From: an uncultured Anaerolineae bacterium
Lineage (GTDB): Bacteria > Chloroflexota > Anaerolineae > Aggregatilineales > J027
DNA: 64,000 bases
Assembly (NCBI GenBank): GCA_964639245.1
Contig: CAZXCU010000021.1
Span: forward strand, 9,269 to 73,268
Direction: 5' to 3'
This document shows positions 4,835 through 53,180 of this stretch, piece after piece. Position 1 is the stretch's first letter. Each line of letters starts with the position of its first letter. Made by a program: the position numbers and the translations under genes. Below the pieces are notes generated by a model. That model was not told the DNA's origin and made no database searches. It worked only from the letters and a program-made list of their open reading frames with translations.

Positions 4835-4865
4835 AAGCCCCGTGAAAAACGGGGCTTTTTTGTTT
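4835..4865 (+). terminator. Rho-independent terminator
   Basis: Stem aagccccg / cggggctt with loop tgaaaaa, followed by a T-run (ttttttgtttt). Confidence 0.8.
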
Positions 4866-4880
4866 TATGGAGAAACTGTA

Positions 4881-31715: not shown

Positions 31716-33761
31716 ATGTACTACAAAGTGTTCATCGACGGACAAGCCCTACTGGGCAGCTCCATCCTCATTGCATCCTTGCTGTGTCTGTTGCCCCTGT
31801 TAGTCATTAGCTTTGCATGGAGTTTAGGCGCAGATATACGCCGCAGTGAAGCAGGCGGACATACCCAACTGCTTCCCCGAATATGGCTGCACCTGCTCAT
31901 CACCGTATTGGTTTCTCTCATCTATATCGGCATTGCCAGCCATTTTGCAGTGGCACGCGGCTACAGCACCGACCTGACAGGTTTTCTTGAAGTCGTAGTC
32001 GGGCAGCCGCCGCGCTATGTGAACCAACCGCGCCTCCTCATTTTTGCTATTGGACATTGGATCGTCCTTTTTCTGGTGAATCTAGTCGTCTATCAGAATT
32101 TGCAGTCGGGTGGCTGGCTGCGTGGACGACTCGACCAGATGCGGAATCCACCTGTCCAGCGCGGTGAACTGGGATCATCCCATTTCTGCACTCATCGTGA
32201 GTACAAACGCTTTCGGGTGTCCAATCCTGAAGGCATGACCTTCTTTGGGGCGTTCTGGGGAGAGCGCAAAATGCGACTCGATGCTGGACAGGGCATGTTC
32301 TGTCTGAATGGCGAAGATGCCGCCCGAGGCATTCTAGCATTGGGTGGTCCGGGGTCGGGCAAGTCGCAGGGAGTTATCCTGCCCGCCATCGCGGATAACA
32401 TGATGAACCGTCACAGTCTGATCGTGGCTGACCCGCAGGGCGAACTCAAACATCATATCTTGAAGTATGCCCGTGTGACCGGGCATTTGGTGGTCATTCA
32501 TGACCCCACTGGCACGGATACCCCGCGTTTCAACCTTGCCGAGAATATCCAAACGGTCTCGGATGCGCGTGCTATTGCCGATGTGCTGGTTCCATCAGCA
32601 CAGGGGGATAACAAGTTCTGGTCGGATAGTGCCGCCGCGCTGCTGGCAGCCTGTCTCATTCGCTATCAGAACTTAGGCGAGATTTATGAGGCACTCAAAG
32701 ACCTTAAGGCGATGGCTGGGGATTTCAGTAAGCAGGTGGATGATGCAGCCCTACTAGCGAACTCATTTATTGCCAGTGTGAATTCGGATGGCAAGGTTGC
32801 CTCCAATGTGGTCGCCACCCTCGCCACTGCCTTGACAGGCTGGGCTTCCATAGAAGTGCGCCAGAACACCGCCGCCAGCGACTTCGATGCCGACCTGATT
32901 GTACAGCAGCCGACGGTAGTGGTGCTGACCTGTCCCGGACGGATGCGAGCGGTCTACGCCTCTTATCTCGGCGCAGTCCTCCGCAAATTGATGCTGGATT
33001 TGGATAGTATTGGGGAAGCGAATCAGGGTCCGCTGCCGATGCCCGTCAACATCATCTTGGATGAGTTTCCGACATTAGGCAGATTGGATAGTTTGGTGGC
33101 AGACGTGAATCTCGTTCGTAAGCGGCGCATCTCCATCCTGATTGCTGCCCAAACCAAAGGACAGTTCCACCTGATTTATGGCAATGATGGTACGCAGGCG
33201 TTATTCACCGGCTTGGCAACACAGATTGTCTATGGCGGCTGCGATGCCGAAACCGCCGAGTTCTACAGCCGTGCCTCTGGCACTGCCACCCAAAAAGATG
33301 GCGATACTGACCATCCCGCCTACCGCAGCCGCCCCCTGCTGACGGTGGATGAGGTTGTCACCCCACAGGCAGGCAATGCCACGCTCTTTGCCCGTTATGT
33401 TGATCCTGGCTATGCCACCCAGATCATCCTGACCTGCCGCCTGACCCGCCTGTACGAACGCCAGGATTGGGCAGTGCGGCTCAAGACGAGCGCAGAGCGC
33501 GAACCGATGCTGCTTGAAAGAGGCATCACCCTGCGTTTGAATGCGATGCCAACACTACCCGCCCAACCTGCGAAACTTGAAGTACCGCTCAGTCGCTTAA
33601 TTCCCAGCTTGGATGCCCATTTTGATGCCATCTACCAGAAAACACAGACCTTACCCGCTGAGCAGCGAATGCAGGCAGGTGACGACCTACTGGCAGTCGT
33701 CGCCCCCAACCATCAGGTCTTTAATGCCAGTTTGAAGGATTTACGGAGAGCCAGAGCATGA
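31716..33761 (+). CDS. Type IV secretion coupling protein (VirD4/TraG/TraD family)
   Basis: N-terminal TM helices, Walker A LGGPGSGKSQGVILP and Walker B NIILDEFPTLG. Confidence 0.8.
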   Translation: MYYKVFIDGQALLGSSILIASLLCLLPLLVISFAWSLGADIRRSEAGGHTQLLPRIWLHLLITVLVSLIYIGIASHFAVARGYSTDLTGFLEVVVGQPPRYVNQPRLLIFAIGHWIVLFLVNLVVYQNLQSGGWLRGRLDQMRNPPVQRGELGSSHFCTHREYKRFRVSNPEGMTFFGAFWGERKMRLDAGQGMFCLNGEDAARGILALGGPGSGKSQGVILPAIADNMMNRHSLIVADPQGELKHHILKYARVTGHLVVIHDPTGTDTPRFNLAENIQTVSDARAIADVLVPSAQGDNKFWSDSAAALLAACLIRYQNLGEIYEALKDLKAMAGDFSKQVDDAALLANSFIASVNSDGKVASNVVATLATALTGWASIEVRQNTAASDFDADLIVQQPTVVVLTCPGRMRAVYASYLGAVLRKLMLDLDSIGEANQGPLPMPVNIILDEFPTLGRLDSLVADVNLVRKRRISILIAAQTKGQFHLIYGNDGTQALFTGLATQIVYGGCDAETAEFYSRASGTATQKDGDTDHPAYRSRPLLTVDEVVTPQAGNATLFARYVDPGYATQIILTCRLTRLYERQDWAVRLKTSAEREPMLLERGITLRLNAMPTLPAQPAKLEVPLSRLIPSLDAHFDAIYQKTQTLPAEQRMQAGDDLLAVVAPNHQVFNASLKDLRRARA

Positions 33762-37767: not shown

Positions 37768-40700
37768 TTAGAGTTCCAGATCAACAGTCACGGGCTGTTC
37801 GGGGGCAGGTGTCATGGAGATAGGGTGAAAATCTTCCGCCCTGTGCTGAAGTGTCCATTCACCTGCCGTGACTTGACCTACTTCAGCCGTATCCAGCCAG
37901 CGTTCGTTGTTCCCCAACCCATTTGCCACCTGCGCGTTTTTGACAAACTCCAGTGCGGGCATGATGTTCGTTCCTTCGGTATCGAGATCACGTTTGTAGA
38001 AGTATTCATGTAGAGAAGCGGCGTAAAAGTCAGCATCAGGTTTACGCTCGAAGTGTGCCACTTCATAAGCTGTCACTGCCTGCGTATCTTCCCAATCGCG
38101 GGAATTTTCATCCTGTTCCCACTGAGCATCCAGTGCGACCACTGAATGTCCTAATGCCTGTCCCTCTCCTGTCTGGACAGGCACAACTTCCAGCGAAAGT
38201 TCATGGTGTGGGGGATGCTCGGCGGCATACTGCCGGGCAGCATGGTTGATCTCGCGTTCCGAAAGGAAGGGGTCTTCGGGTCCTTCCTTAAACATTTGCC
38301 CAAAACGCACCTCTGGATTAATGTGAAGGTCTAATTCCTCAGCCCGCTCCACCATGTCAGGGTAATTCTGAATATCTGCCACTGTCGCGGCACGGGTCAT
38401 GGCAGCCTGAATGCCCTCTTTTTCCGCCAGATCAGCATAGGTATCCACCTCGTGCCGCGCATCATCGCGGTCATAATGGACACCCAACGTGACCACTTCC
38501 TGCTGGGATTCATCGCCTGCCCCCCAATGTTTGACCGTTTCAACGGCTAGGGCATCTACCCCATAACGTGCCACCTCGACTTCCAAATCGGGAATAGGAC
38601 GCATCCGAAATTCATAGGACTGTCCTGCCTCTAAAGGCAGGTCGTAAGCTGCATCCCCTACCGTGCGACTGTAATCCAGACGTGGGGGAATAAAGCCGGT
38701 AGATGCAGGTGGGGGGGTCTGTATATTTCCCACAGTTTCATGCCCCCAATCAAATTCAAGGTCTTCCCGTTGAGGGTCAGCGGGTCCCGCCTGAAACAAC
38801 CCCTCTTCCCGCACATTCAGATGTAAGGCGGTGGTCGTGCTTTCAGGCAGGTGGGCAGCCTGTCCAGCGAAGTCATGAGCGAGCGCCTCCATTTTTTCCA
38901 GTCGTTCCACCACATCAGTCCCTTGTGCCAGTTGATCGGCAGTTCGCACTGCCTCAGCCCGGTCATTCCCCAGCCCCAGTGCCACCGTTTCCAGTCCTGT
39001 TTCTCCCGTTTCGCGTTCCAGCCACGCCTTCACCCCCTCCACCATATAGGTGGGCTGTTCAGCACCGTCAAGTGTTTCCTCCCGCACCGCCACTCCGTAG
39101 AACTGACCCGCTTCGACTTCAGGATCAGCCCCGTAGCGTCCGACGGCGCGGGCATGAACCACTGACTCAGGCAGCGGGATTTTGTAACCGTTTAAACCAA
39201 AATTTTCGGCATCCCGCTCCCAATCTCGTTCTGTCTGAATTGCCCCCACTGAACGGGCATCATCAGGGATTGTAAAGGTGTCGGAAGGACCTTGTTCAAA
39301 GAGGCTGTCCCCCTTGAACCCCTCCTGCTGTGCCAGTCGTAGTGCCGACCCCATCGCATGATCGAGGTCATGCCGACCCCATTCATAGACCAGGGCGCGG
39401 GCATCTGAGAGGGCCTCACTGCGCGGGTCGAGATAGGAAACGGATTCATCATAAGCGTCGGCGCGATAGGTCTTAAGGACTGCTGACTCGGTGACTGCCT
39501 TCTGCAAGATGTCACTCTCGAAGGTCTTAGTAGCTGCCAGTATCACATCACCATCGGCATTGGGGGCTGAGACTTCCAACCCGTACATGGATTCATCGCC
39601 TACTGGACGCAACCGCAGCGGGGCAATCTGCCCTGGGTCAGTATTCTCCGGGGAACGATACTCCGCTGTGATGTAGGGCGGGAGATAACTGACGTGTTCA
39701 TTCAGGTCAACTTCCCAGTTGACCCGTTCGGCTTTGAGTGTATTTGCCATACCTTGCTCCTCTCTATCTATATCGGTGATCACTGCACCTAAGCGCAGTG
39801 CGTCAGCTAACAAGGGATCAAGCTCAGGATTAGCGGGCATATCAGAGGGGTGTTCCCTCCCTATCAGGCGTTCATATAAGTCGTAATGTTCAGGTTGCAT
39901 GGGCTGCCAGTGGGGATCAGCCACCTGTGTTTCAGCAAACCTGCCCCACTGGGCGGAGGAATCATAAGCAGCGAAAGCCGCTACTTCCAGTTGGTCACGC
40001 TGCTCTTGTGCCTGTTCAACCGTATCATGCTGACCAAGTGCCAGATAACTGCCTGCCAGATCACCCGTCAGGGCATCGCGGTAGACATCCAATAAGGCCG
40101 TCTGATAGGTCCCTCCCGACTGCGCGGGTGGCAGCACCGCGAAGCGTGCCTCCTGCCAGCCCCAGCCTGTGTCCTCGATTTCCGCTGCTGGAGCAACTTC
40201 CATGATTTCGGCATTGCGTTCCAGAATCTCCTGTTGATCTAAATAAAAGGTGGGTGACATGGGTATAGCCGCAAATAAAGACTGCCCTACCTCTAGCTGT
40301 CCATGCTTGTATGCCTCTTCTGCCGCAGTCGCCATCAGCAGTGGCACACCGCCCTCAGCCTGAGCGTCTTCTAAAGTCATGCTCAGGTGCGAGGCTTCAT
40401 GTGGCGATAAATTCCAGCCAATCATGGCATCAGCAATGCCGTGTTCATGTAGAGCTAGAATGGAAACAGAAGTTGGTTCGCCTGTAAAAACAGAATCGGG
40501 AGGATAGCTAGCCACCATATAACCAGCAGCATAGTCCAGCGGCTGCTGTTGGAGGTGAGGGAGATGCTCGGCGATGACCTCGCGCCCCTGTTCATACAAG
40601 GCTGCCGATACCTCCTTGAGATGTTCTTCGGCTTCCATATCGCTGACATATTCCGCCAACGTCAGCCGCTGTTGGACTTCCACTCCATGCGCTTGGCGAG

Positions 40701-40863
40701 TGCTGCGGACGAGGTTGACCCGATAGCGATCATCATCACTTTCGGGGAAAGCCAATTCCACCCCATAGACTGCATCGGCGGCATAATCCACCAGATGGGT
40801 CTCTTCAGGGTAGTCGTCATCCCGCACCACCAACATCTCCGCCCCAAACTGCCGCACGCTCAT
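37768..40863 (-). CDS. Large acidic repeat-module protein (1031 aa)
   Basis: Start overlaps the upstream stop (TAATG). At least five copies of a YGV/LG(Y/H)-type beta-alpha module are present. No TM segment or enzyme motif accepted. Confidence 0.6.
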   Translation of the reverse strand: MSVRQFGAEMLVVRDDDYPEETHLVDYAADAVYGVELAFPESDDDRYRVNLVRSTRQAHGVEVQQRLTLAEYVSDMEAEEHLKEVSAALYEQGREVIAEHLPHLQQQPLDYAAGYMVASYPPDSVFTGEPTSVSILALHEHGIADAMIGWNLSPHEASHLSMTLEDAQAEGGVPLLMATAAEEAYKHGQLEVGQSLFAAIPMSPTFYLDQQEILERNAEIMEVAPAAEIEDTGWGWQEARFAVLPPAQSGGTYQTALLDVYRDALTGDLAGSYLALGQHDTVEQAQEQRDQLEVAAFAAYDSSAQWGRFAETQVADPHWQPMQPEHYDLYERLIGREHPSDMPANPELDPLLADALRLGAVITDIDREEQGMANTLKAERVNWEVDLNEHVSYLPPYITAEYRSPENTDPGQIAPLRLRPVGDESMYGLEVSAPNADGDVILAATKTFESDILQKAVTESAVLKTYRADAYDESVSYLDPRSEALSDARALVYEWGRHDLDHAMGSALRLAQQEGFKGDSLFEQGPSDTFTIPDDARSVGAIQTERDWERDAENFGLNGYKIPLPESVVHARAVGRYGADPEVEAGQFYGVAVREETLDGAEQPTYMVEGVKAWLERETGETGLETVALGLGNDRAEAVRTADQLAQGTDVVERLEKMEALAHDFAGQAAHLPESTTTALHLNVREEGLFQAGPADPQREDLEFDWGHETVGNIQTPPPASTGFIPPRLDYSRTVGDAAYDLPLEAGQSYEFRMRPIPDLEVEVARYGVDALAVETVKHWGAGDESQQEVVTLGVHYDRDDARHEVDTYADLAEKEGIQAAMTRAATVADIQNYPDMVERAEELDLHINPEVRFGQMFKEGPEDPFLSEREINHAARQYAAEHPPHHELSLEVVPVQTGEGQALGHSVVALDAQWEQDENSRDWEDTQAVTAYEVAHFERKPDADFYAASLHEYFYKRDLDTEGTNIMPALEFVKNAQVANGLGNNERWLDTAEVGQVTAGEWTLQHRAEDFHPISMTPAPEQPVTVDLEL

Positions 40864-42029
40864 TAGTCCAGCTCCATCCCGACTGGACTAAAGGCACTCT
40901 CAGGTTCAACAGGCATTCCCCACAACTCACGCTGTTGGGTCGCCACTGCCATGCCTTCGGCAGCATCCAGCACCTGCCCCACATCTTGCGTGCGTTCTGC
41001 CACTCCCAGCAGGTATTCGGCAGTACGATAAGCATGATCCCAATCCCCTGTTGCTACGGGCGCGAGATGCGCGAGGGGCTGTCCGTTATCGTCCTGCTGA
41101 ATAGAGAGAATAGAGGTGATCGCCTCATTGGGATTGGTTGGATCGGGCTGATACACCCCAATCCAATAGGCAGTATTCGTGCTTTCATCAAATAAGGGAG
41201 GAGGCGTATTGGCAGGATCAAAATCCTCCGCTTGCAGTCCCAATCCCCGCATGACAGTCTGTAATTCATGCGTTTGGTCAATCTCATCCCGTTCCAATTC
41301 ATCCCTACTGACTTCAAAAACCTGCGCCAGCAGCCGATCCCGAGCTGCCCAGGTTGCATCATCCTGAAAATCGGGAGTATCAGGGGCAAGGGATTGATCG
41401 ACAATCTTCCACTGTGTATCCGTCAGCGGCTGCCACTCGCCTCCCTGTTTGATGAGTCCATGCGCGAAGTCCCCTAAATCCGCATCAGCCACCTCTGCTT
41501 CATCCGCCAGATGGTAGATGTTGCTCCGCATCTCCTCCGCCCGTGCCAAGTGGGGTGCATCTGCCATGTGTAAATAGGTTCCCGTCTGGTCGCCTGTCTG
41601 TGGGTCCTGCCAGACTTCCACCACTCCTACTGCGTAATGATCGGGCGTAGGTTCATCAGCAAAAACTTCTTCGATCAGGATGCCTGTATGCTGCAAACGC
41701 CAAGAGCTGTCCCGTTCAATGGGCAGCCCATCAGATGCAGGTGGGTGTGTCCCCTGTGTAGAGTAGACCTCAGCAGGTAGGTCAAGTGGTTCCGCCGCGT
41801 ACAGTTCTTCTGGCAGCGCATAGTCCTGAGCCGCTGGGATGGGCGGAGGGGCATACCGCGCCATCCTTTGCAGGAGCATATCGTCCTCATCCGGGAACAA
41901 ATCCGGCGGTTCTGGCGGCAGGGTACTATCAAAAACCCAATCTGGGGGTTCTTCCATAGTATTTACGGGAAAATACACATCAGGCGGTTCCTCAATCACC
42001 CAGTCATCAGGTGGAGGCATTAAGCTCAT
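40863..42029 (-). CDS. Acidic Pro-rich protein carrying the same repeat module (388 aa)
   Basis: N-terminal EPPDW-type short repeats. Modules HYAVGVVEVWQDPQTGDQTG... and AYWIGVYQPDPTNPNE... Confidence 0.55.
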   Translation of the reverse strand: MSLMPPPDDWVIEEPPDVYFPVNTMEEPPDWVFDSTLPPEPPDLFPDEDDMLLQRMARYAPPPIPAAQDYALPEELYAAEPLDLPAEVYSTQGTHPPASDGLPIERDSSWRLQHTGILIEEVFADEPTPDHYAVGVVEVWQDPQTGDQTGTYLHMADAPHLARAEEMRSNIYHLADEAEVADADLGDFAHGLIKQGGEWQPLTDTQWKIVDQSLAPDTPDFQDDATWAARDRLLAQVFEVSRDELERDEIDQTHELQTVMRGLGLQAEDFDPANTPPPLFDESTNTAYWIGVYQPDPTNPNEAITSILSIQQDDNGQPLAHLAPVATGDWDHAYRTAEYLLGVAERTQDVGQVLDAAEGMAVATQQRELWGMPVEPESAFSPVGMELD

Positions 42030-42041
42030 AGCAGCACCTCA

Positions 42042-43943
42042 CTACGGTTTCGCTGGCTGTAGGATCACGGGTTGATGCTCCAACCCCACCGTATAGCGGC
42101 ATTTGGGGAATGCCGAGCAACCCACAAACTGCCCGTTCTTGCCCACACGCACAACTAAATCGCTCCCACATTGGGGGCATGGTTCCCCTGTTTTCTGGGG
42201 TTCGGGTGGCATCACTTTAGGCTGGGCAGGACGCATTTCTGCCGCTGCCCCGCGCAGCAGTGGTTGAAATTCTCCCCAGAAGGTTTGCAGGACATCGAGT
42301 TCTCCGCGCTGCCCAGCAGCGATTTCATCCAGGGTGTTTTCCAGGCGGGCGGTGTAATCATCTGCCAGCAGCGTGGCAAAACCACCCATGAGATAGTCGG
42401 TCAGTTTGATACCAGTTTCAGTGGGGATAAGCCGCTTCTTGTCGAGCCGCACATATTCCCGTGATTTGAGATTGCTTAGGATGGCAGCATAGGTACTGGG
42501 TCGCCCGATACCACGTTTTTCCAACTCATGGACAAGCTGGGCTTCGGTAAAACGGGCAGGCGGTTGGGTCTGCTTCTGCTGCGGTAAGAGTTTTTGTAGG
42601 ATCAAGGGCTGACCCACAGCTAAAACAGGCAGCACATTTTCAGCGTCGTCTATCTCATCTGCTTCCACATCCGTGCCCGCTTGATACACGCGACGGAAAC
42701 CATCAAACTGGGGGGTACTATCCCGTGCGGTCAGCGTCAAGGGGAACGGCTGCCCCATCTCTTTCCCTGCCAGCACGCTGAGGGTTTGCACGGTATCCAC
42801 TGCCGATGCCATCTGACTGGCGACAAAACGCCGCCAGATGAGTCCATATAAGGCTGCCCCATCAGCGACATTTTCCTTGATATGGTCAGGGGTAAGTGTC
42901 ACATCCGTAGGACGGATGGCTTCATGTGCCTCTTGAGCATTCGGCTTGCTCTTATACTGCGGCTTCTCGGTTGGTAAATATGATTCTCCATAGGCTTTGC
43001 CGATGAAGTCAAAGGCAGCCACCTGCGCCTCTGGTGCAATGAACACGGCATCCGTCCGCATATAAGTGATGAGAGAGGTCTCATAGAGGGTTTGAGCAAG
43101 CTGCATGGTCTGCTCGGGCGAGAAGCCCAACGTGCTGCTGGCAGCCTGCTGCAAGGTGCTGGTCGTGAACGGAGCGGGCGGTTTGCGCTGTACGGTCTCA
43201 GTGTTGATCTCACCCACCCAATAAGTTGCACCTTTGAGGGTCCCAGCCAGCTTTTTGACAAATTCCACTTCTTTAAGGGGCAGATTTTTGTCTTGAACCG
43301 CCGTGAGTTTGGCTTTGAAACTGGCAGCCTCTGTTCCCAGCAGAGCTTCCATAACAAAGTAGGTTTCTGGGGTGAAGGACTGGATAGCCCGTTCGCGCTC
43401 CACCACCAACCGCAAGGCAGGCGACTGCACCCGCCCTGCCGAGTAGCGACCATCAAGGACACGACAGGCAATTGGGCTAACCAGATAGCCCACCAGCCGA
43501 TCCAGTTTGCGGCGGGCGTGCTGGGCTGCCACCAATGCCATGTCCAAACGGCGTGGATTTTCTACCGCTTTACGCACCACTTCCTGCGTGATCGCAGTGA
43601 AGGTCACCCGCATGACGGGCTTCTCACGCGGCAGTTTGGTCAGTGCCAAAATATGGGCGGCAATGGCTTCGCCCTCGCGGTCAGGGTCAGTCGCCAGATA
43701 GATGGCTTCCACCTCATTCATCGCCTTGACCAGCCGCTTGATGATGTTGTTTTTTCCTGCCACTGTCTCCCATTTGGGGACAAAACCTGCTTCTACATCT
43801 ATCCCCAGTTCATCGCTAGGCAGGTCACGCACATGCCCCATGGAAGCCATGACGCGAAACTCACTCCCCAGATAAGACTGGATTTTTTTGACTTTGCCCG
43901 GCGATTCCACAATCAGCAACCGCTTGGCTTTGGGTTTGCTCAT
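42042..43943 (-). CDS. Type IA DNA topoisomerase (Topo I/III-like) with C-terminal zinc ribbon
   Basis: ATG 43943 with an AGGAG SD. TOPRIM LLIVESPGKVKKIQSYLG and DPDREGEAIA. Active-site Tyr region LITYMRTDA. C-terminal CPQCGSDLVV...GCSAFPKC. Confidence 0.85.
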   Translation of the reverse strand: MSKPKAKRLLIVESPGKVKKIQSYLGSEFRVMASMGHVRDLPSDELGIDVEAGFVPKWETVAGKNNIIKRLVKAMNEVEAIYLATDPDREGEAIAAHILALTKLPREKPVMRVTFTAITQEVVRKAVENPRRLDMALVAAQHARRKLDRLVGYLVSPIACRVLDGRYSAGRVQSPALRLVVERERAIQSFTPETYFVMEALLGTEAASFKAKLTAVQDKNLPLKEVEFVKKLAGTLKGATYWVGEINTETVQRKPPAPFTTSTLQQAASSTLGFSPEQTMQLAQTLYETSLITYMRTDAVFIAPEAQVAAFDFIGKAYGESYLPTEKPQYKSKPNAQEAHEAIRPTDVTLTPDHIKENVADGAALYGLIWRRFVASQMASAVDTVQTLSVLAGKEMGQPFPLTLTARDSTPQFDGFRRVYQAGTDVEADEIDDAENVLPVLAVGQPLILQKLLPQQKQTQPPARFTEAQLVHELEKRGIGRPSTYAAILSNLKSREYVRLDKKRLIPTETGIKLTDYLMGGFATLLADDYTARLENTLDEIAAGQRGELDVLQTFWGEFQPLLRGAAAEMRPAQPKVMPPEPQKTGEPCPQCGSDLVVRVGKNGQFVGCSAFPKCRYTVGLEHQPVILQPAKP

Positions 43944-44113
43944 TTCTGCTCCTTCTTTTGACCATCCACTTTCAGGTTTTCCTGCGCCGCCGCGATATGC
44001 TGTTCCAACTGCTTGATCTTCCGCGCCAAGAACAGCGGCCATTCCAGAAAAGCGTGATAAGCATCCTTTTCAAGAGCCTGAAAGGTCGTTGTGTCCGTGA
44101 TCTTTTTTGCCAT
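43940..44113 (-). CDS. Small ORF (57 aa) absent from the ORF track
   Basis: Read on the minus strand as TAGGAGGGACGC-ATG...MAKKITDTTTFQALEKDAYHAFLEWPLFLARKIKQLEQHIAAAQENLKVDGQKKEQK. Its stop overlaps the topoisomerase ATG (ATGA). It fills the gap between virB4-like and the topoisomerase gene. Confidence 0.5.
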   Translation of the reverse strand: MAKKITDTTTFQALEKDAYHAFLEWPLFLARKIKQLEQHIAAAQENLKVDGQKKEQK

Positions 44114-44122: not shown

Positions 44123-46276
44123 CTATGTTGATCCAAACCGCCGCAGTTCATCGCGTGAGGCGCGATTGAACAGATAAAACGTGCCTTCGTCCTGAATATC
44201 CAGCAGAAAGTGGAAACGCGGCAGCGATGAAATAATGGATAAGTGCTGGGCGTTGAAATGCTGAAAAGCTGCATCTTCGCGGAAGACATTCATGCCTTGT
44301 TTCTGCGAGAAAATGACGCGAATCGGGCTGTTCTCGAAGATCAGACGTGCCTTGCCCTCCAAGAAAATAGACATATTTTGATCAATCGAAACCAACTTCT
44401 TGCGTCTGGTACGGAAGGTCTTGGCTGCCTCCACCAGAAAGTCCAGCAGGGAGGGATGGCGCAGCATCCGATAAACTTCATCGACTGCGATGACTCGCGG
44501 CTGCTCATCGCGTAGGCTGTCACGGCGAATGGCTGCCAAGCACTGAGCGTATGCCAGGGCAGTCATCGTGGGATCGTTCTCTAACTCATGGAAGGAGAAA
44601 ATGCGTGGGGCAATCCAATTCCGACCCGCACGCCCGAAGTCGAAGGTCGTGGTTCCATTCAGGAACTTTGCCCAAGGACCCGATCCGGTCACGAGTGCCG
44701 CGATTTCATCCGCCAAATCTTTGGCAATTTGCTGGATGTGGGGTTTGTCCCCCAAGCCAGACCCAGAGAGGACATCACAGACAAAATCGCAGGTCGGGGT
44801 TTTGTCGGGTGAGAGGCTTTCCAAATCCTCCCGATACGCGGCATAAACTATTTCAAGTGCCTGTGCCAGCAGACCCCGTTCCAAGTTCTCGCGCTGCCCG
44901 CCGGAAAGTGAACGTCCCATCACCGTTTCGTAGATACGAATAGTGTGGGAGGTCTGTTCCAGTAAAGTCGGGAACATCACATCCTGTGGATTGAGGCAGG
45001 TCGCCTGCGCTGACAGCACATACCAGGGCAGCCCGAAAGCAGAAGCCAGATGTTTGCCGTGTCCCATGGGTTCGAGCATGTCGAAGGACACGCCGTTCTC
45101 AGCATATTCACGGTTGAGCAGGCAGTTCAAGGCAAAGGTTTTGCCAAACCCTGACTGCCCGACCCAGACCTCATGTACGGCCCGTTTATCCCGCCACGAG
45201 TTGTGGAAAACCGGATATTTGCCACCCACCGCTTCGCCACGCAGCACCCCATCAACCACCCCCAGCTTGCGGTAGCCCAGAGGAGCTAACATCAAGGCAA
45301 GTTCGCGGGAAGTCACGGGATGGGTTGTGTTAGGTATCCCAATCGTCGCGCTTTTGGAAGCCGAGAACAGATAGGCAGAGCGCGAAAGCAGTTCACCCAC
45401 TTCCTGCCGTAATCTAAAATACGATCTTGCTTCAGTGATAACTTCGGAAACCCGCGCCTTGAGCGTGTCCAAGGTGTTGGCTGCTACCGCGATGGCAATC
45501 CGCACCGTATGCAGGGCATCCCCCTGATTAATTTCTTCAAGGGTACGGCGGCAGTCATTGATACGGGTGATGGCGCGGCTGTCTTCTCCGCCGCGCAAAG
45601 AGACCAGATGCACCTGATAGGCCTGAATGATGCCTTCCACCGCATCCACTGCTTTGTTGCGATCCAACGTTTCAGGGATGTCTATGCAGAGTGCCAAGGG
45701 GAAGTTCATCCGCAGCAGGGGTGGGATGGGACGGAAGAAATTCCATGCCGCAGGCAGAAATTCGTAGGAGTTCAGGATTGCCCAGAAAGGACGACCTCCC
45801 GGACGACCAATGGGTGCAAGGTGCGAAAAAGGGGTTTCGCGTAAGGCGTAGCGACCTTCAAATAAAGGCGGTAAATCCGCTTCAAGGGCGGGTGTATCGA
45901 AAGCTGAAGCCAATCCATTGGCAACGGTGCGTCCAGTTTCCTCTGTCCACAGGATCATGCCGCATAAGGCACGCTGGAATTCAGCATCGGCTTGAAGTTG
46001 TTCATAGTGCCTACGATAGGCCATGCACATCTCGGCACGAGCGCGGTCTTCCACCAGGCGGGCAGTCTCCGTCACTGCGTTGATTTTCTCGTTCAGGTCA
46101 GCGGGCATCTGCCAGCACAGGAAACGGGCAGGACCATCCAATGTGCGTAGGAACGCCGAGAACCGTCCCTGTAGGGCGGTGACACCTTCCTCAGTCGCGT
46201 GCATCATCAGGTCAAACGGTTCGATCAGCACGGTGCGAGCGGGTAACTCTTCTTTCTTACGACGAGGGGCAACCAC
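44123..46276 (-). CDS. VirB4/TrbE/TraC-like conjugation ATPase
   Basis: GTG start with a GGAGGAGG SD. Walker A VWVGQSGFGKTFALN and Walker B RVIAVDEVYRML. Confidence 0.8.
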   Translation of the reverse strand: MVAPRRKKEELPARTVLIEPFDLMMHATEEGVTALQGRFSAFLRTLDGPARFLCWQMPADLNEKINAVTETARLVEDRARAEMCMAYRRHYEQLQADAEFQRALCGMILWTEETGRTVANGLASAFDTPALEADLPPLFEGRYALRETPFSHLAPIGRPGGRPFWAILNSYEFLPAAWNFFRPIPPLLRMNFPLALCIDIPETLDRNKAVDAVEGIIQAYQVHLVSLRGGEDSRAITRINDCRRTLEEINQGDALHTVRIAIAVAANTLDTLKARVSEVITEARSYFRLRQEVGELLSRSAYLFSASKSATIGIPNTTHPVTSRELALMLAPLGYRKLGVVDGVLRGEAVGGKYPVFHNSWRDKRAVHEVWVGQSGFGKTFALNCLLNREYAENGVSFDMLEPMGHGKHLASAFGLPWYVLSAQATCLNPQDVMFPTLLEQTSHTIRIYETVMGRSLSGGQRENLERGLLAQALEIVYAAYREDLESLSPDKTPTCDFVCDVLSGSGLGDKPHIQQIAKDLADEIAALVTGSGPWAKFLNGTTTFDFGRAGRNWIAPRIFSFHELENDPTMTALAYAQCLAAIRRDSLRDEQPRVIAVDEVYRMLRHPSLLDFLVEAAKTFRTRRKKLVSIDQNMSIFLEGKARLIFENSPIRVIFSQKQGMNVFREDAAFQHFNAQHLSIISSLPRFHFLLDIQDEGTFYLFNRASRDELRRFGST

Positions 46277-46726
46277 TTACACCTCCTCCACAAAGACCAA
46301 ACCCTGCCCATCCTCATCGGGTGCGGCGTAGGTTTCCCACTGAGACAAATCAACTTCTACCGCCTTTTCAGGTGGGGCATAGACCTGTGTTCCATCCAAC
46401 ATGACCAGGTGGATCGGCAGTTCCAATGTTTCTGCCGCTTGTGCGATGAGACTGTCGGGCTGACTGGCAGCGGCGATAATGAACCAGCCGCGCACGCGAT
46501 ACAGCAGGCGGGTATACAGACTCAAGCCGCCACGCTGGGCAGAGAGAATCAGCAGACCAATGAAGCCTACAAATCCGAAGGGAATAGCACCAATAGGGAA
46601 AACAATACGGGCGATCATGAAGATGACTACCGCCCCTACCCCTGCTCCCAGGAGGCGTTTGAAGGGAATGCCAAACATGCCTTTTTCGTCCCGTCGCAAG
46701 ACGTGGGATTTGAATTCTGCTACCAT
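46277..46726 (-). CDS. VirB3/PrgI-like small membrane protein
   Basis: Two hydrophobic helices (GAVVIFMIARIVFPIGAIPFGFVGFIGLLIL). Located immediately upstream of virB4-like. GAGGAGG SD. Confidence 0.5.
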   Translation of the reverse strand: MVAEFKSHVLRRDEKGMFGIPFKRLLGAGVGAVVIFMIARIVFPIGAIPFGFVGFIGLLILSAQRGGLSLYTRLLYRVRGWFIIAAASQPDSLIAQAAETLELPIHLVMLDGTQVYAPPEKAVEVDLSQWETYAAPDEDGQGLVFVEEV

Positions 46727-47212: not shown

Positions 47213-47218
47213 TATAAT
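47213..47218 (+). promoter_or_regulatory. Candidate -10 hexamer TATAAT upstream of the giant kinase/STAND gene
   Basis: Perfect TATAAT at 47213-47218, but no good -35 element. It sits 6 nt before the track TTG start, which favours ATG 47257 as the real start. Confidence 0.3.
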
Positions 47219-47256
47219 ATTATTTGAAATCTTTTGCTTCAGATGGATACAAATTT

Positions 47257-50200
47257 ATGCCAAAGATAATTGGGTTTGAAGGATTAAGCGAAAGCTATCA
47301 GAGACTACTACAAGTGGTTGCTGACACACTCGACCTAAACTTATATGAGATTGAACGTATCGATACAGGTAAGTCTACTGCGATTTTGTATCTAGTCTCT
47401 TTGGAAGGTAGTAAACAAGTCATAATAAAAATGGATGAAGTACGAACAAAAGCTGGGGTGAAACATGATGAGTCTGCATCTCATACGCTTGCTCAAAATT
47501 CCTATGCTCCTTGGATTTCAAAGAATATAACCGCTTTGGTTGCCGACCCTATATATTTGCCGGGAAAACACAAAAAGGTCGCAATGATATATGAAATTGC
47601 AGGATATTCTCTTCAAACAGTAAAACCGCTTTCTCATTATGGTTTTTCCTCTAGCACATCAAATGTAATATCTCTAATTGTTAATGATATACTAGACGAT
47701 TTTCTATCTATAAAGAGAGAAACAGAAAAAGCATCACCCTATGATGTTCTTCAACACTGGACCAAGAATCGATTACACAATTTAGATTCAGTGTTTGAGG
47801 ACATTTCTCAAGTCGCTTCATCGACTGCTGGGTTGATGATAGATGGGGTTGTTTTGCCAAATCCACTATTATATCTACACGACAGAAAATTATGGCAAAA
47901 TAAAGAATTCTTTGTTGTAAAAACTAGCAGACATGGTGATTTACATTTAGGCAACATACTCTATGATAATAGTTTAAAAAAATACTTTCTAATTGACTTT
48001 GCAATGTTCCAAGTAGAGAGTTATGGTTTTTTTGATATACCATATCTTTTGCTTAGTTACATACTTTTGCTTTCCGGGTCTTTAGATATTTCTTCTAAGA
48101 AATTTCTTGGAGCTTTGGCAGCAAACACAGGGATGTATAATTCTGATGGGCTTGAGTTTAATACCTTAAACGATAACCTAGCTCCAATAACTAGTCAGCT
48201 TCGGGAATTTGGTCAGAAATATGGTAGTCATTATGGAAACCAAGACGACTTTTGGATCCAGTACCACTTAGCTGGGATCGCAACAGGTCTAATTCAGGCA
48301 AGTGTGCAATCTATTTCTAAAGATAAGAAATTTGTGGCTTTGATTTTCGCTGCTAGTCACATGGAGGCTTTGCGACACCGATGGAATATGCCACGTCCCG
48401 CAAAAGCAGTTGAAATGAATGCTACGGTAACTTACATGGGTGATGAATTTATGTCTGAATTCGATATTTTAATGGACAGATGTGATAACTTTTCCCCAGG
48501 TCGCTTATATATTGCGGTTATAGGTCCTTCCAACAATGCTGTTACAAAATTAAATGCATTTGGCAGAGTTCCATGGAATTTAGTTATTGATTTTAATCCA
48601 AATCTTTCGCAGCATGATCAAATTTTCCAAGCATGTAAAGTTGAAATCGAACAAAAGAGATCGCTCCATCTCATTACCACCGACAACTACGATGCAATTG
48701 AAATATACCCTGATCGGGCTACAACCTATTGGTATGGGGCATCAGGATTAAATGAGCGACCAAGTACAAAACCAAATACTCCAACTAGTTCGACTTACAC
48801 AGAATGGATGAGAAATAACCACAGGCGATCCCTTAATCAATTTGTCGATAAATTGGCTACAAATAGTCATTTTCAACCAGTTAGCCTATTAATTTTTTGG
48901 GACGAGGGAAAATATATTGAAGCAGTCCATGATCAGTTATTTGAAGTCTTCACAGATCGCATTGATACATTTGTTATTTTAGAAGAATCTGATAGACGAA
49001 AATACTTGCAGGAAAGAATAGATGCCACAATGGTTCCCCTAAATCTGCATCAATTTGTAGAGGGAATAGAGAGGTACATTGGTTCGGCATCCAAATCAAT
49101 AACTGGTTTTCTCCTTCCAACTCGTGACAGAAATACTAGCCCAAGAGAAATATCGATTTCCAAAGTTAATTGGGTCCAGGAATTGATGGAACTTGTTCAT
49201 CTAGATATTGAGAACATCCCTCCCGAGTCTGAAGATGAATTTGAACGTAGTTTTTATCAAGGTAGAAAAATAACTTGGCGTGAACTGCTTGCTGATAAAG
49301 ATATTCCTCGCTTAGTGCCTCAAAGAAATCTTGAAAAAGCAGTTGTTCAACGTTTAGAAAATCGAGACGCATCTATTATTTATCTATATCACGAACCGGG
49401 AGCAGGAGGAACCACTCTTGCTAGACGTATTGCTTGGGATATACATAGGAAATATCCCGTCATAATTCTTCACAGTGCTGATGATTCTAACGAAGCATTT
49501 CAGCGCTTAACATATATTTACGAGGAGACTGATTCTATTATTTTAGCAATAGTTGAAGCATCCGATGTAAATGAAGATCAGCTAAAAAGCCTTTTTGACC
49601 AGTGCATTAGTGATAATCTACCTATCCTGTTTTTGTATGTAAAGAGGGCTTTTGAATCCCCAGGGGGAAACGCTATCTTTTTGCGTGAAGCACTAGATAG
49701 AGATGAAGCTCTCGCCTTTTCAATTCGTTATGCTGAATTGAAACCCAATAAACGAAACATTCTTAGTGAGCAAGCACAGGCTTCTAATCCCGCCGAGCGA
49801 ACTCCATTCTTTTTTGGGTTATTAGCATTTGAAGAAAACTATATTCGTCTAGACGATTACGTTAGAGCACGTTTAGGCGATTTACAAAGTGGCTCAAATG
49901 ATATTGAAAATATACAGAAGATGTTAATCTATCTTTCTATTGCATATTATTTTTCTCAGCAGGCTCTTGAGATTCAAATATTCGCACATCTATTAAACCT
50001 ACCGCAAAATAGACGGGTGATATTGCAGCCTTTATTTGAAAAATACCAAGGTCCTCTTTCGCTGCTAGTTCCAGAGAATGATGGCAAAACTTGGCGACCA
50101 ATGCATACGTTGGTCGCAGAAGAAATAATGAGACAATTATTTTCCAATAACTTTGCTGAAAATTATTCTCAAGATGACTGGTTAGAGTACCTTTCAATAT

Positions 50201-51723
50201 ATTCAAAGACCTTCGTAGAATATCTTGCCCAACTTCAAACTATGTTATCACCTTTATCGATTCGTCCTATCGATGATCTGATTAAAAAAATCTTTATAGA
50301 TCGCGATGATCAGCTAGACTTAACCTTTGAGGACACAGTACAAATCACCACTGTGGGAACTAAAAAATACTCTCGCCTAATTGATGCAATCAAGTCAGAT
50401 AACGGTAAAAAAGTCATCTTTGATGCACTTGTATTCAACTTTCCTAAAAAATCACACTACTGGGCACATAGAGGACGCTTTACATGGCTGGTCGAAAGAA
50501 ATTATGAACTAGCGCTTAATGATTTGGACACAGCAATTAATTTATCTGGTGGACGAGATACAGAAGATTATATTTTGCATCACATGCGCGGTATGGCTAT
50601 GAGGGCATGGGCAGAAAAAGATATGGATCATTCGGAAAGAAGTTATAGGACAACTGGAAAATTTAGCTCAGACTTCTTGATAAGCATAGATCAAAAGGTT
50701 TCAGATGCGTTAAAATCCTTTGCTATAAGTAGAGAATTACGCCCAAATCGGGGACATGGCTATATATCTGCCATTCAAATATTAATTCGCATGATTGAAT
50801 TTGGGTATAAAACTAGCGGATATGATAGCTATGGGGAATTTTTGAGAGCAACATCGGCAAGTAAATATCTTGATTACTTGCAAGAAGCCGAAGGTCTATT
50901 AGATCAACTACAACGTCAAACCCAACAGAGGCGGTCAGATAAATATATACAAGAGTGTGAAGCAAAATTGCTTGAGTTTTATGGTGATTACTCTAGGCTT
51001 ATCGAGGGTTGGCAAAATATGCTGGATCGCGGTACTGGTCATGCCCCATCTATTAGAAGGGGGTTAGTATATACATATGTAAGGCGTAAAGATGGATGGG
51101 ATTATCTTGAAGAACGAGAGCTTCAACGTACTTTAGAATTAATGGAAGTTAACCTACACCAAGAACCAAATGAATCGCGCAATGTATGGTTGTGGTTTCA
51201 ATCAGCTAGAAGACTAAATATTGCGATAGATATATTAATTGAAAGACTGTTTTACTGGGAGCGCAAAGGAAATTCTGTAGAAACAGCATTTTACTTATAT
51301 GTGTTATATGCAGTCAAAACTATTGAAGGATCCGCAACATCTAAAGAACCTTGTGAGCGTGTTATGGAAACCTGTAAACGACTTGCTCAAGGAAATCCTA
51401 ATAGAACACGCTCTTTAGAGTGGTTGACCTATGGTGATGGAGTGGGAAGTTTGATACATAGGTCTTCCCTAGGCAGGTGGGACAAAATTAAAGACTTTTA
51501 TGAAGATACCTCTAAACTATATCGGGTAAGAGGAACTATTTCTCGTATTGTTGATCGTCGTAAGGGTAACATAGAGTTGGCATGTGGTTTAAAGGCATTT
51601 TTTATCCCAGGTGTAACTGAAGACATAGCTGGTACTTTAAGTCTCAATATGCCAGTTGATTTCTTTCTCGGCTTTAGCTACGACGGATTAAGAGCTTGGC
51701 AAGTTGAAGTATTGGACAAGTAA
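47257..51723 (+). CDS. Giant multidomain protein: protein-kinase-like/APH-fold N-terminus, Rossmann-type middle domain, STAND-like NTPase with altered P-loop, TPR-like repeats, C-terminal OB-like domain
   Basis: Kinase-like: DTGKSTAILYLV, QVIIKMDE and SRHGDLHLGNILYD...FLIDF. NTPase: LYHEPGAGGTTLARRIAWD (Gly where the Walker A Lys is expected) with DSIILAIVEASD. TPR-like: HYWAHRGRFTWLVERNYELALNDLDTAINL. C-terminal: LYRVRGTISRIVDRRKGNIELACGLKAFFIPG. The gene is AT-rich and lies antisense within the T4SS operon. Confidence 0.65.
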   Translation: MPKIIGFEGLSESYQRLLQVVADTLDLNLYEIERIDTGKSTAILYLVSLEGSKQVIIKMDEVRTKAGVKHDESASHTLAQNSYAPWISKNITALVADPIYLPGKHKKVAMIYEIAGYSLQTVKPLSHYGFSSSTSNVISLIVNDILDDFLSIKRETEKASPYDVLQHWTKNRLHNLDSVFEDISQVASSTAGLMIDGVVLPNPLLYLHDRKLWQNKEFFVVKTSRHGDLHLGNILYDNSLKKYFLIDFAMFQVESYGFFDIPYLLLSYILLLSGSLDISSKKFLGALAANTGMYNSDGLEFNTLNDNLAPITSQLREFGQKYGSHYGNQDDFWIQYHLAGIATGLIQASVQSISKDKKFVALIFAASHMEALRHRWNMPRPAKAVEMNATVTYMGDEFMSEFDILMDRCDNFSPGRLYIAVIGPSNNAVTKLNAFGRVPWNLVIDFNPNLSQHDQIFQACKVEIEQKRSLHLITTDNYDAIEIYPDRATTYWYGASGLNERPSTKPNTPTSSTYTEWMRNNHRRSLNQFVDKLATNSHFQPVSLLIFWDEGKYIEAVHDQLFEVFTDRIDTFVILEESDRRKYLQERIDATMVPLNLHQFVEGIERYIGSASKSITGFLLPTRDRNTSPREISISKVNWVQELMELVHLDIENIPPESEDEFERSFYQGRKITWRELLADKDIPRLVPQRNLEKAVVQRLENRDASIIYLYHEPGAGGTTLARRIAWDIHRKYPVIILHSADDSNEAFQRLTYIYEETDSIILAIVEASDVNEDQLKSLFDQCISDNLPILFLYVKRAFESPGGNAIFLREALDRDEALAFSIRYAELKPNKRNILSEQAQASNPAERTPFFFGLLAFEENYIRLDDYVRARLGDLQSGSNDIENIQKMLIYLSIAYYFSQQALEIQIFAHLLNLPQNRRVILQPLFEKYQGPLSLLVPENDGKTWRPMHTLVAEEIMRQLFSNNFAENYSQDDWLEYLSIYSKTFVEYLAQLQTMLSPLSIRPIDDLIKKIFIDRDDQLDLTFEDTVQITTVGTKKYSRLIDAIKSDNGKKVIFDALVFNFPKKSHYWAHRGRFTWLVERNYELALNDLDTAINLSGGRDTEDYILHHMRGMAMRAWAEKDMDHSERSYRTTGKFSSDFLISIDQKVSDALKSFAISRELRPNRGHGYISAIQILIRMIEFGYKTSGYDSYGEFLRATSASKYLDYLQEAEGLLDQLQRQTQQRRSDKYIQECEAKLLEFYGDYSRLIEGWQNMLDRGTGHAPSIRRGLVYTYVRRKDGWDYLEERELQRTLELMEVNLHQEPNESRNVWLWFQSARRLNIAIDILIERLFYWERKGNSVETAFYLYVLYAVKTIEGSATSKEPCERVMETCKRLAQGNPNRTRSLEWLTYGDGVGSLIHRSSLGRWDKIKDFYEDTSKLYRVRGTISRIVDRRKGNIELACGLKAFFIPGVTEDIAGTLSLNMPVDFFLGFSYDGLRAWQVEVLDK

Positions 51724-51782
51724 TATGATTTATATAGTATTTATGCAAAACATTTTAGGAGATATTTTTAAATTAGTTCTTT

Positions 51783-53180
51783 TCAGTACAGCTGAATGCT
51801 GAACCGATACGTTAACACATCAAGTGAAATAAATTGCATTTGATCCTCCCATAGCCAAGTAATGGTTAGAGTTGCCGCCTGCCCTGGAAGGATGGTCATC
51901 TCTGCCAAATTAGTGGTTGGTATCCAAGGTCCGGGCGGATTAGGTTGGTTGCCAAAAGCCATCTGTATATCATCAGGGTAAAGGGTCACTGGGTCAAATT
52001 GCCCGTTGTAGAACCGCAGGCTTGTCACCAGATACCCATCGGGTGAGGTCTCCACGCTGACCAATTCCACGTAGAGCAGATCACGTGCTGGCAAAGGAGT
52101 AGAAGTGGGGATAAGTGGTGTAGGGGTTGCAAGGGGTGTATCTCGCTCAATATCCGTCGAGAGGAAGCCCTCACGGGTCAATTCCTGTTCCGCTTCATAA
52201 CGCCCTACCACCAACAAACGGGTAGCAGTTGGTGCGCCTTCATCATCGAGTTCACCGATCAAGACTAGCACTAAGCCGGGTGAAATCTGCCGAAAAGCAG
52301 CTGTGTCGCTGCGACGAGCCTCAGTTTTCCGCTCAAAGTGGTACTCAATGATTGCCCCGGTATTGAGAACAAGATGAAATACCGCTCCCTCGTTCAAGCG
52401 AGTAAAGAGGTCTTCGTTCTCCTCACTCCACGGGATGCCCACCACTCGCCGCACTGACATACCCAACAGGTAGCTGGCGGTATCGGGGTTAGGGTCATAT
52501 TCCCATTCGGAATACTCCACTGCCCGCCGCTGCACGACAAAGACCCGCGGCTGCTGTTCACCCTCTGGGTAGATTTGCAGCCCAACGGGGTACGAGAGCG
52601 TGCGGCTGCTATCCCGATCCCCATCCTTGATGATGGTATCCTGCTCCTCAAGGGCGATAGGAGTAGGTGTGACGGTGTAGCGCAGTGTCGGTGAGGCATA
52701 CGGATTGGCAGCTTCATCCACTTTAGGTTCATCACCTCCACCGATACGTGTCATCAAGATAAAAAGGAAGAAACAAATAAACAGCAATCCGGCTGCTCCC
52801 ATAAGCAGCATGGGATTGGGCATTCCACTCCCCTTCGGCATGTATTCGTCTTCTGGGGCAGTCAGAGGTTCACCGCCCATCGCGGCAGCCTTGACCCGCT
52901 GCGGCGGTTTCGCCCACCGCGCTCCAACAGGCACAAGGGCATCCTGCTCAAAACGTGCCAGCAGTGCCTGCACCACTTGTAGTTCTTCGGCATCGGTCAC
53001 TGCATTCACTTTACCCGCTTCACGCTCTAACACCTCACGGTAATACTGCTGCCGCTGGGTAGGGACAAGGGCGTAGGCTTCATCCAGTTCCGCTAGGGAC
53101 AACCCATGCCATGCTGCCAACGGGCGGTACTGAACTTCCTCAAGTTCAGGGATGGGGGCAATCGTTTCGTTTTTGGTCAT
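51783..53180 (-). CDS. Hypothetical single-pass membrane protein of the T4SS operon
   Basis: Central TM segment LLMGAAGLLFICFFLFILMT. Packed 4 nt from the upstream stop. Confidence 0.55.
   Translation of the reverse strand: MTKNETIAPIPELEEVQYRPLAAWHGLSLAELDEAYALVPTQRQQYYREVLEREAGKVNAVTDAEELQVVQALLARFEQDALVPVGARWAKPPQRVKAAAMGGEPLTAPEDEYMPKGSGMPNPMLLMGAAGLLFICFFLFILMTRIGGGDEPKVDEAANPYASPTLRYTVTPTPIALEEQDTIIKDGDRDSSRTLSYPVGLQIYPEGEQQPRVFVVQRRAVEYSEWEYDPNPDTASYLLGMSVRRVVGIPWSEENEDLFTRLNEGAVFHLVLNTGAIIEYHFERKTEARRSDTAAFRQISPGLVLVLIGELDDEGAPTATRLLVVGRYEAEQELTREGFLSTDIERDTPLATPTPLIPTSTPLPARDLLYVELVSVETSPDGYLVTSLRFYNGQFDPVTLYPDDIQMAFGNQPNPPGPWIPTTNLAEMTILPGQAATLTITWLWEDQMQFISLDVLTYRFSIQLY

Follow-up and report, generated by a model that had tools for sequence, protein, structure and literature searches.

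In a 64,000-nucleotide (nt) stretch of contig CAZXCU010000021.1 from an uncultured Anaerolineae bacterium (the window), a single AT-rich, plus-strand gene breaks a minus-strand row of conjugation genes. We predict that this gene encodes an Avs-like single-gene immune sensor with a kinase effector, carried as cargo by a conjugative element, and we put the probability of this reading at roughly 60%. Judged from its sequence, the protein is a bacterial SAMD9-family member of the kinase-headed branch and is neither a SAMD9 ortholog nor Avs9. It was placed outside SAMD9 proper and Avs9 because the N-terminal AlbA_2 nuclease of those proteins is absent; AlbA_2 gave no Pfam match in the window protein, and residues 1 to 390 are a kinase fold. 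An earlier reading of this DNA (the original prediction) had proposed a single-gene NLR-like immune sensor, which agrees with the homology to SAMD9 and Avs proteins and with the location of the gene in a variable slot of the element.

Human SAMD9 and SAMD9L are antiviral and disease genes whose regulation has been visualized only recently. Their bacterial relatives are tractable models, and the kinase-headed type is as common as the nuclease-headed type (67 of the 150 top representatives carry a kinase). If the kinase is an immune effector, it would give NLR-like immunity a new output chemistry, one not yet shown for any STAND immune receptor, and, if the proposed His-for-Lys, ATP-locked switch is real, it could be studied in a simple system. 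The kinase-headed branch and its GGT/S Walker A motif have been known since 2017. What is new is the Anaerolineae host lineage and mobile-element location of a kinase-headed SAMD9 protein, the assignment of its head to the APH/choline-kinase-like (TCAD9) class and not to the Hanks-type Ser/Thr kinases, and a defense-cargo hot spot in the transfer operon of poorly known Chloroflexota conjugative elements.

Kinase head and SAMD9-type core

A structure model of residues 1 to 400 (predicted local distance difference test [pLDDT] score, 80.3; predicted template modeling [pTM] score, 0.83) was compared with the PDB by Foldseek and matched ChoK, APH, FN3K, the amicoumacin kinase AmiN, and the lanthipeptide kinases TvaE and LxmK. 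These matches had a probability of 1.00 and E values down to 3e-7, with 10 to 15% identity to solved APH/ChoK structures. The substrates of the nearest kinase folds are small molecules, glycated proteins, or peptide Ser/Thr residues. The feature set of a bilobal kinase is present (β3 Lys, αC Glu, HxDxxxxN loop, and metal-binding Asp), and the translation contains DTGKSTAILYLV at residues 36 to 47, VIIK with K58, HGDLHLGNIL at residues 226 to 235, and FLIDF at residues 244 to 248. K58, H226, D228, N233, and D247 are invariant in an alignment of 41 homologs; the His, Asp, and Asn of the catalytic loop and also D247 are found in 69/69 aligned kinase-domain rows, and at least 90% of sequences have the αC Glu, E72. 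Because the kinase-domain homologs compared are divergent (22 to 34% identity), the near invariance of these residues argues for selection on catalysis. The kinase fold that had been proposed for the N terminus is thus borne out by the model, the PDB matches, and the catalytic residues alike.

Since it is the only domain with a full catalytic set, and has a kinase fold, the head is the predicted effector of the protein. TCAD9, a protein-kinase-like family in the KINtaro resource, was defined as an effector-type domain of nucleoside triphosphate (NTP)-dependent conflict systems, and the effectors that Kaur et al. list for such systems include an active APH-like kinase. Among the homologs, P0114 scores 51.2 bits against the Pfam TCAD9 model, and P0155 and P0022 have confident precomputed matches to it.

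Two other interpretations of the head bear on this assignment. Kaur et al. found that most Ser/Thr/Tyr kinase domains of related conflict systems have disrupted catalytic residues, and the NTPase and SIR2-like domains of the SAMD9 family are themselves noncanonical, so a head that is noncatalytic in vivo, serving as a scaffold or decoy and acting by oligomerization or through a partner encoded elsewhere, has to be considered. We regard this as improbable, as the catalytic Lys, Glu, His, Asp, and Asn and the metal-binding Asp persist across such divergent homologs and no conserved partner gene adjoins the homologs in the contexts inspected. It is also possible to imagine an APH-type phosphotransferase conferring resistance to an antibiotic or other small molecule and fused to a large regulatory region, given that the fold and the HGDLHxxN catalytic loop resemble those of APH/choline kinases. 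This we rejected as very improbable: the Pfam APH score is 12.3 bits, against a cutoff of 23.2, with the weak APH/EcKL matches falling on the HGDLHLGN loop; identity to the solved enzymes is low; a SAMD9-type sensor core makes up three quarters of the protein; and no resistance genes were seen around any locus examined.

The remainder of the protein resembles SAMD9 in both sequence and predicted structure. A profile built from four homologs and searched against PDB sequences found human SAMD9 in three collinear stretches (E = 2e-15), including the SAMD9 P-loop HHPGCGGTTLA, and a profile of 41 kinase-type homologs found it at an E value of 7.9e-46, through the SIR2-like domain and the nucleotide-binding module and into the TPR region, plus the OB tail. 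An AlphaFold2 model of the core (residues 401 to 1488; pLDDT, 74) had as its top five PDB matches SAMD9 cryo-electron microscopy (cryo-EM) structures only, with E values of ~1e-29 and more than 1,200 alignment columns; EfAvs5 (E = 1.5e-11) and AVAST5 came next. Every motif quoted in the original prediction is present in the translation; their sum, a SAMD9-family core, had gone unrecognized there.

The SIR2-like domain, which aligns with that of SAMD9 from profile position 417 on, contains LYIAVIGPS, LITTDNYDAIE, YWYGASG, and SLLIFWDEG. It had been described as SIR2-like without the catalytic His, and profile, model, and alignment agree; no invariant His or Asn was found between residues 400 and 640 in the 41-sequence alignment. 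The domain is predicted to be structural or regulatory, by analogy with SAMD9, whose SIR2-like domain has no NAD lid (PMC13600222). An active SIR2 NADase effector was rejected, as the catalytic His and Asn are absent.

The suggestion that the center of the protein is a P-loop NTPase also held, with nSTAND_NTPase5 scoring above its Pfam cutoff. The P-loop motif EPGAGGTTLARR occupies residues 713 to 724 and is preceded by a conserved FYxGxxIxWxEL element that aligns with an insert of the SAMD9 lineage. After the STAND module come the proposed TPR repeats, which are supported by profile matches and would form a sensor or autoinhibitory arm, and an OB-like tail, modeled as a five-stranded barrel and containing RVRGTISRIVDRRKGNIELACGLKAFFIPG at residues 1421 to 1450. 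In this tail the alignment to SAMD9 is collinear but weak (domain E value, ~0.1), and the pLDDT of the barrel is roughly 70 to 86 in most blocks. The tripartite one-gene layout of Avs proteins, an N-terminal effector domain, a central STAND NTPase, and C-terminal repeats, is thus present.

The original prediction had singled out a Gly in place of the Walker A Lys. The Gly is indeed there, as residue 718, and is no peculiarity of this protein but a hallmark of the family: across 152 aligned homologs, position 718 is Gly in 141, Ala in 11, and Lys in none. In the same set, position 712 is His in 146 and Tyr in 6, position 719 is Thr or Ser, and position 767 is Glu or Asp, while the 41-sequence alignment shows no variation at H712, G717, R797, or H950. 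Residues H712, G717-G718-T719, E767, R797, and H950 align with H737, 742GGT744, D799, R837, and H985 of SAMD9; the window protein has Ala in place of D800, the second Walker B acid of SAMD9. In the SAMD9 cryo-EM structures, an upstream His occupies the Lys position, and by analogy His712 likely substitutes for the Walker A Lys. In SAMD9, ATP-Mg is stably held in a closed, autoinhibited state with very slow hydrolysis, if any, and the functionally important residues include the Thr of Walker A, the acids of Walker B, sensor-1 Arg837, and the winged-helix His985 (PMC13600222). The H985A change gives SAMD9 a gain-of-function toxicity. A possibly nonhydrolyzing switch, as had been suggested, is therefore reasonable, but it is established biology of the SAMD9 family, whose GGT/S Walker A was published by Mekhedov, Makarova, and Koonin in 2017 (PMC5445408), and not a new feature. 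That the change from Lys to Gly marks a dead domain was rejected, since the same loop in SAMD9 binds ATP-Mg through its Thr and the upstream His.

Family, cargo slot, and possible function

A word-indexed protein search returned only three or four relatives, the full-length ones being three proteins from Streptomyces and Micromonospora with 25 to 27% identity. The extreme rarity that this might suggest was refuted by an exhaustive profile search, which found 933 cluster representatives at E values of ≤1e-30 and 2,690 at ≤1e-3. The window protein is a singleton when clustered at 90% identity, and its nearer homologs are 31 to 34% identical to it. Alongside the 67 kinase-headed proteins, the top 150 matches include an AlbA_2-type cluster of ~58, an assignment made from one member with Pfam SLFN_AlbA_2 and nSTAND_NTPase5 matches; DUF4365 and Metallophos domains are further heads on the SAMD9-type core. 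Swappable N-terminal heads on a conserved sensor core are a signature of Avs-type immune proteins.

Some relatives depart from this plan. In the metagenomic protein P0005 (1,415 aa), the same type of kinase-like head (24% identity over 240 residues, with HGDLHTEN) is joined to TPR repeats and a P-loop of the canonical NB-ARC type, GLGGVGKTQLA; the head thus passes between STAND families that have the Walker A Lys and others that lack it. The kinase-headed members P0114 (2,118 aa), P0146, P0119, P0131, and P0140 are 300 to 600 residues longer, and P0114 has an extra Pfam CSD (cold-shock) domain at about residues 1633 to 1695.

The genomic settings of six homologs were inspected. One kinase-type homolog lies in a defense island with BrxC/D-like, HerA-like, Dnd-like, and PNP-SAVED genes; one AlbA_2-type homolog adjoins a DNA methylase gene and a HicB gene; and one Metallophos-type homolog has a Y1 transposase gene beside it and no defense genes near. 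The GC content of the gene is below that of its flanks by 7 to 24 percentage points in 5/5 nonactinobacterial homolog loci (L004 to L008); the Streptomyces homolog locus L002 has no drop (0.69, against 0.70 for the genome). In the window, the GC content of the gene is 0.375, against 0.549 and 0.535 in the minus-strand flanks. A lower GC content than that of the flanks is usual for transferred defense genes.

A search with the VirB4-like gene of the window returned ~40 related loci, all from Anaerolineae/Chloroflexota genomes (one record is labeled Bacteroidetes). The gene order g391-g883-g465-(slot)-g120-g149-VirB4-g105-TopoIII recurs in ~30 of these loci, which justifies describing the gene as inserted into a conjugation operon. 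Across these ~30 loci, g465 and g120 are separated by ~0.26 kb to 4.6 kb, with 4.6 kb in the window; the slot is empty (~260 nt) in L016, L027, and L041. DNA similarity to the closest relatives stops at 47218/47219 and resumes at 51836/51876, so that the variable module is essentially the SAMD9-like gene, and none of the related loci contains such a gene. Because elements with an empty slot exist, the gene is dispensable for conjugation. In other loci the slot is also GC poor, its genes lie mostly on the opposite strand, and they encode proteins such as an AAA_35-TIR protein, a candidate defense protein, and a GajB-like helicase (Table 1). Judged by the genes that it holds, the slot is a defense-cargo hot spot inside the transfer operon, and we take the SAMD9-like gene to be horizontally acquired cargo of an Anaerolineae conjugative element.

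The further idea that the antisense position couples expression of the gene to read-through of the operon found no support; opposite-strand cargo is normal for this slot. In a scan for promoters and terminators, promoter-like sites were less frequent than in shuffled sequence, and no terminator came up. No direct or inverted repeats that could point to the insertion mechanism were found on either side of the gene, megablast of the flank against plasmids gave no match, and there are no tRNA genes in the window.

Several observations support the defense role that we favor: Avs9 is toxic, SAMD9 is antiviral, one homolog lies in a defense island, and the cargo of the slot is of defense type. Other points weigh against it. 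The kinase head of the window protein scores 28.8 bits against the Pfam TCAD9 model, below the cutoff of 40. The core model has a pTM of 0.47 and a template modeling (TM) score to SAMD9 of ~0.3; this low global score arises because the relative placement of the domains is poorly predicted. The link to defense islands is not uniform, with three of the six homologs inspected standing alone amid housekeeping or metabolic genes. PADLOC has no model for the kinase-headed protein, and our literature search found no report of a kinase-headed member having been put to the test. Finally, Legrand et al. argue for a convergent origin of the domain combinations in Avs9 and SAMD9, and the transfer of mechanism from SAMD9 is therefore an assumption.

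An unlikely alternative is a signal-transduction protein, namely, a kinase regulated by the STAND and TPR parts that steers the physiology of the host or the element (development, stress, or conjugation). Mekhedov et al. inferred signal-transduction roles from the combination of kinase and TPR domains (PMC5445408), several homologs are solitary amid metabolic or regulatory genes, and the window gene sits within a row of conjugation genes. However, the core also occurs with nuclease or phosphoesterase heads in place of the kinase, which is the pattern of immune effectors and not of a dedicated pathway; in addition, sister elements hold defense-type cargo in the slot or leave it empty, and the composition of the gene is strongly atypical.

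It is quite unlikely, in our estimate, that the protein serves the element itself, as an addiction or exclusion module or as a weapon against competitors triggered by foreign conjugative DNA or proteins. Its place inside the transfer operon of a mobile element would fit such a role, as would an OB/cold-shock-type tail that suggests nucleic-acid sensing and the reported binding of double-stranded nucleic acids by SAMD9 (PMC12015307). Homologs occur outside mobile elements too, however, and the present data do not separate this role from antiphage defense.

If the protein is an immune sensor, its mechanism may be sketched by inference from work on SAMD9 and Avs proteins. In the resting state it would be a closed, autoinhibited monomer or dimer with ATP stably bound in the STAND module through His712 (in place of Lys), Thr719 with Mg, Glu767, Arg797, and the winged-helix His950, and with the SIR2-like domain acting as a structural clamp. 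Binding of a phage- or invader-derived protein or nucleic acid to the TPR/OB arm would open the module and allow oligomers to form. The kinase heads, released or brought together, might then phosphorylate a small molecule or a Ser/Thr or other hydroxyl on a protein or RNA-linked substrate, and the outcome would be growth arrest or abortive infection, protecting the clonal population and the element. A more specific proposal, which we advance tentatively and think doubtful in its entirety, is that the protein represents an uncharacterized Avs type whose output is APH/choline-kinase-like phosphorylation, whose switch is a stably bound, not a hydrolyzed, ATP, and for which conjugative elements of Anaerolineae keep a dedicated antisense cargo slot within the transfer operon; metabolites, nucleotides, tRNA-linked molecules, and core proteins are all conceivable targets of the kinase.

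Gene boundaries, neighbors, and sister elements

The mechanical list of open reading frames (ORFs) gives the main ORF as plus strand, 47224..51723, with a TTG start and 1,499 aa. Translation probably begins at the in-frame ATG at 47257, with which the N termini of homologs and the 1,488-aa database entry P0001 agree; this start yields 1,488 aa with the stop at 51723. The original prediction had the end of the gene exactly right and its length (about 1,490 aa) nearly so; its start, 47213, is out of frame and only approximate. A pseudogene was rejected, given an uninterrupted ORF in which every motif is conserved. The AT-rich plus-strand gene breaks the minus-strand conjugation row, as had been described, with VirB2-, VirB3-, and VirB4-like genes on its left. 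For the VirB2-like protein the start is probably Met41, at ~47073, as homologs align only from residues 32 to 48 on. Pfam and NCBIfam scans gave most neighboring genes no family match at all and no recognizable type IV secretion system (T4SS) family for g465, g883, and g391 on the right of the slot; NCBIfam and PADLOC gave nothing useful for the SAMD9-like protein.

Table 1. Features of the window and cargo of the corresponding slot in sister elements (locus coordinates carry the locus name)
Feature	Coordinates	Strand	Residues	Basis or remark
Kinase-headed SAMD9-family STAND protein gene, 1,488 aa (likely start)	47257..51723	+		ORF, homolog N-terminus alignment
Protein-kinase-like domain, APH/choline-kinase type (Pfam TCAD9 family)	47257..48426	+	1-390	Predicted effector
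Kinase catalytic loop HGDLHLGN	47932..47955	+	226-233	Metal-binding Asp, D247 in LIDF
SIR2-like Rossmann domain	48469..49176	+	~405-640	SAMD9 profile alignment, alpha/beta model
STAND nucleotide-binding domain, nSTAND_NTPase5	49246..49650	+	664-798	PF25199, 43.1 bits vs cutoff of 34
Noncanonical Walker A, H712-E-P-G-A-G-G-T-T720	49390..49416	+	712-720	Gly718 at Lys position
Walker B strand ending in E767 (= SAMD9 D799), sensor-1 R797 (= SAMD9 R837)	49540..49650	+		Strands at core residues 362-367, 390-397
Helical and winged-helix part of STAND module	49651..50169	+	~799-971	Profile alignment, model; includes invariant H950
TPR-like helical repeats	50170..51384	+	~972-1376	Profile to SAMD9 TPR, IFIT1/5, consensus TPR; all-helical model
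OB/cold-shock-like beta barrel	51412..51720	+	~1386-1488	Five beta strands in model
Variable cargo module	47220..51835			DNA homology and GC drop
VirB2-like small protein, two hydrophobic helices	46831..47193	-		Left slot border
Small membrane protein in VirB3 position	46277..46726	-		
Distant VirB4/TraC-type conjugation ATPase	44123..46276	-		Anchor of conserved gene order
Topoisomerase III	42042..44042	-		
T4SS coupling protein	31716..33761	-		Further left of topoisomerase III
Conserved 465-aa gene of element (g465)	51783..53180	-		Right slot border; no recognizable family
Slot cargo, AAA_35-TIR protein and DUF1697	L011:4611-7761			
Slot cargo, PDC-S39 candidate defense protein	L013:3062-5028			E = 5e-190
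Slot cargo, DUF4062-UvrD helicase	L022:3059-5690			GajB-like
Slot cargo, FRG/PDC-S15 protein	L045:1628-2861			
Slot cargo, HNH nuclease	L012:7628-9175			
Slot cargo, WYL regulator	L038:5882-9203			

Elsewhere in the window, the minus-strand segment 14772-22307 holds a cluster of three genes, for a 909-aa helicase one end of which is a TnsA-like endonuclease, a DNA methylase of the N6/N4 kind (type II/III models), and a UvrD helicase of 971 aa that is joined to a PD-(D/E)XK nuclease and has GajB-like scores. By its gene content, this cluster is probably a restriction-modification or other defense module on the same element. On the plus strand, 4842-8648 encodes a 1,268-aa protein that combines an N-terminal DUF6094 methyltransferase with an SNF2-type helicase and gives weak scores for ZorD and DpdE. 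Large methylase-helicase fusions of this kind are probably common on conjugative elements. Between the coupling-protein region and topoisomerase III lie the minus-strand genes for a 773-aa protein with an N-terminal DUF488 domain and a weak PDC-M45B score (35443-37764) and for 1,031-aa and 388-aa proteins of no recognizable family (37768-42029).

In at least seven related elements (L012 with L047, L013, L014 with L046, L029, L032, L033, and L035), virB4 ends at about codon 634 and is abutted on the opposite strand by a large serine recombinase gene (~677 aa, 43 to 95% identity between loci), and the remaining virB4 codons and topoisomerase III lie 31 to 42 kb from the break. L012:10001-13910 and L047:10001-10255, for example, are on one contig, ~31 kb apart. 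The virB4 insert contains DUF4365-TPR, WD40, Prim-Pol/DUF3987, ParM-like, and Eco57I-type methylase genes. The pattern suggests a family of elements with a serine recombinase that integrate site-specifically into virB4 of these conjugative elements; virB4 in the window is intact.

Comparison with known systems

The closest described relatives are the kinase-headed bacterial SAMD9 proteins of Mekhedov, Makarova, and Koonin (2017, Biol Direct 12:13; PMC5445408), which have an identical layout of kinase, SIR2-like domain, GGT/S STAND module with upstream His, TPR, and OB. The window copy differs in lying in a Chloroflexota conjugative element and not in an actinomycete chromosome, and whereas the 2017 paper describes a Ser/Thr kinase, the window head is APH/choline-kinase-like (TCAD9) by fold and motifs. 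APH, choline kinase, FN3K, and the TCAD9 kinases share with it the fold and the HGDxxxxN ... D motifs; those enzymes stand alone or head vWA-MoxR ternary systems, while the window domain heads a SAMD9-type STAND protein.

Human SAMD9 and SAMD9L have the SIR2-like, nucleotide-binding, TPR, and OB core in common with the window protein, by sequence and by structure. SAMD9 also shares the GGT of the ATP site, the His substitute, the sensor-1 Arg, the winged-helix-domain His, and the FYRGxxxxW element. Its SAM domain and AlbA_2 tRNA nuclease are both missing from the window protein, which has a kinase head instead, and identity is ~15%. Avs9 (AlbA_2-SIR2-P-loop-TPR-OB; Legrand et al., 2025) is likewise a single-gene protein with the same core, at 30 to 34% identity over ~1,100 residues (P0039, P0035, and others), but its head is a nuclease where that of the window protein is a kinase. 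Avs9 kills E. coli via the nuclease site of its head (Legrand et al., 2025).

Avs5, which the literature groups together with Avs6 (PNP head) with the SAMD9-like proteins, combines SIR2, STAND, and a helical sensor in an arrangement structurally like that of the window protein. Its Walker A is a canonical GSGKT and its SIR2 domain is an active NADase effector, in contrast to the degenerate SIR2-like domain and Lys-less Walker A described here. KpAvs8 shows that a bacterial STAND immune sensor can function with degenerate Walker motifs, and it probably lacks ATPase activity. It belongs to another STAND clade, however, in which the degeneration is lineage specific and has no conserved His-for-Lys swap.

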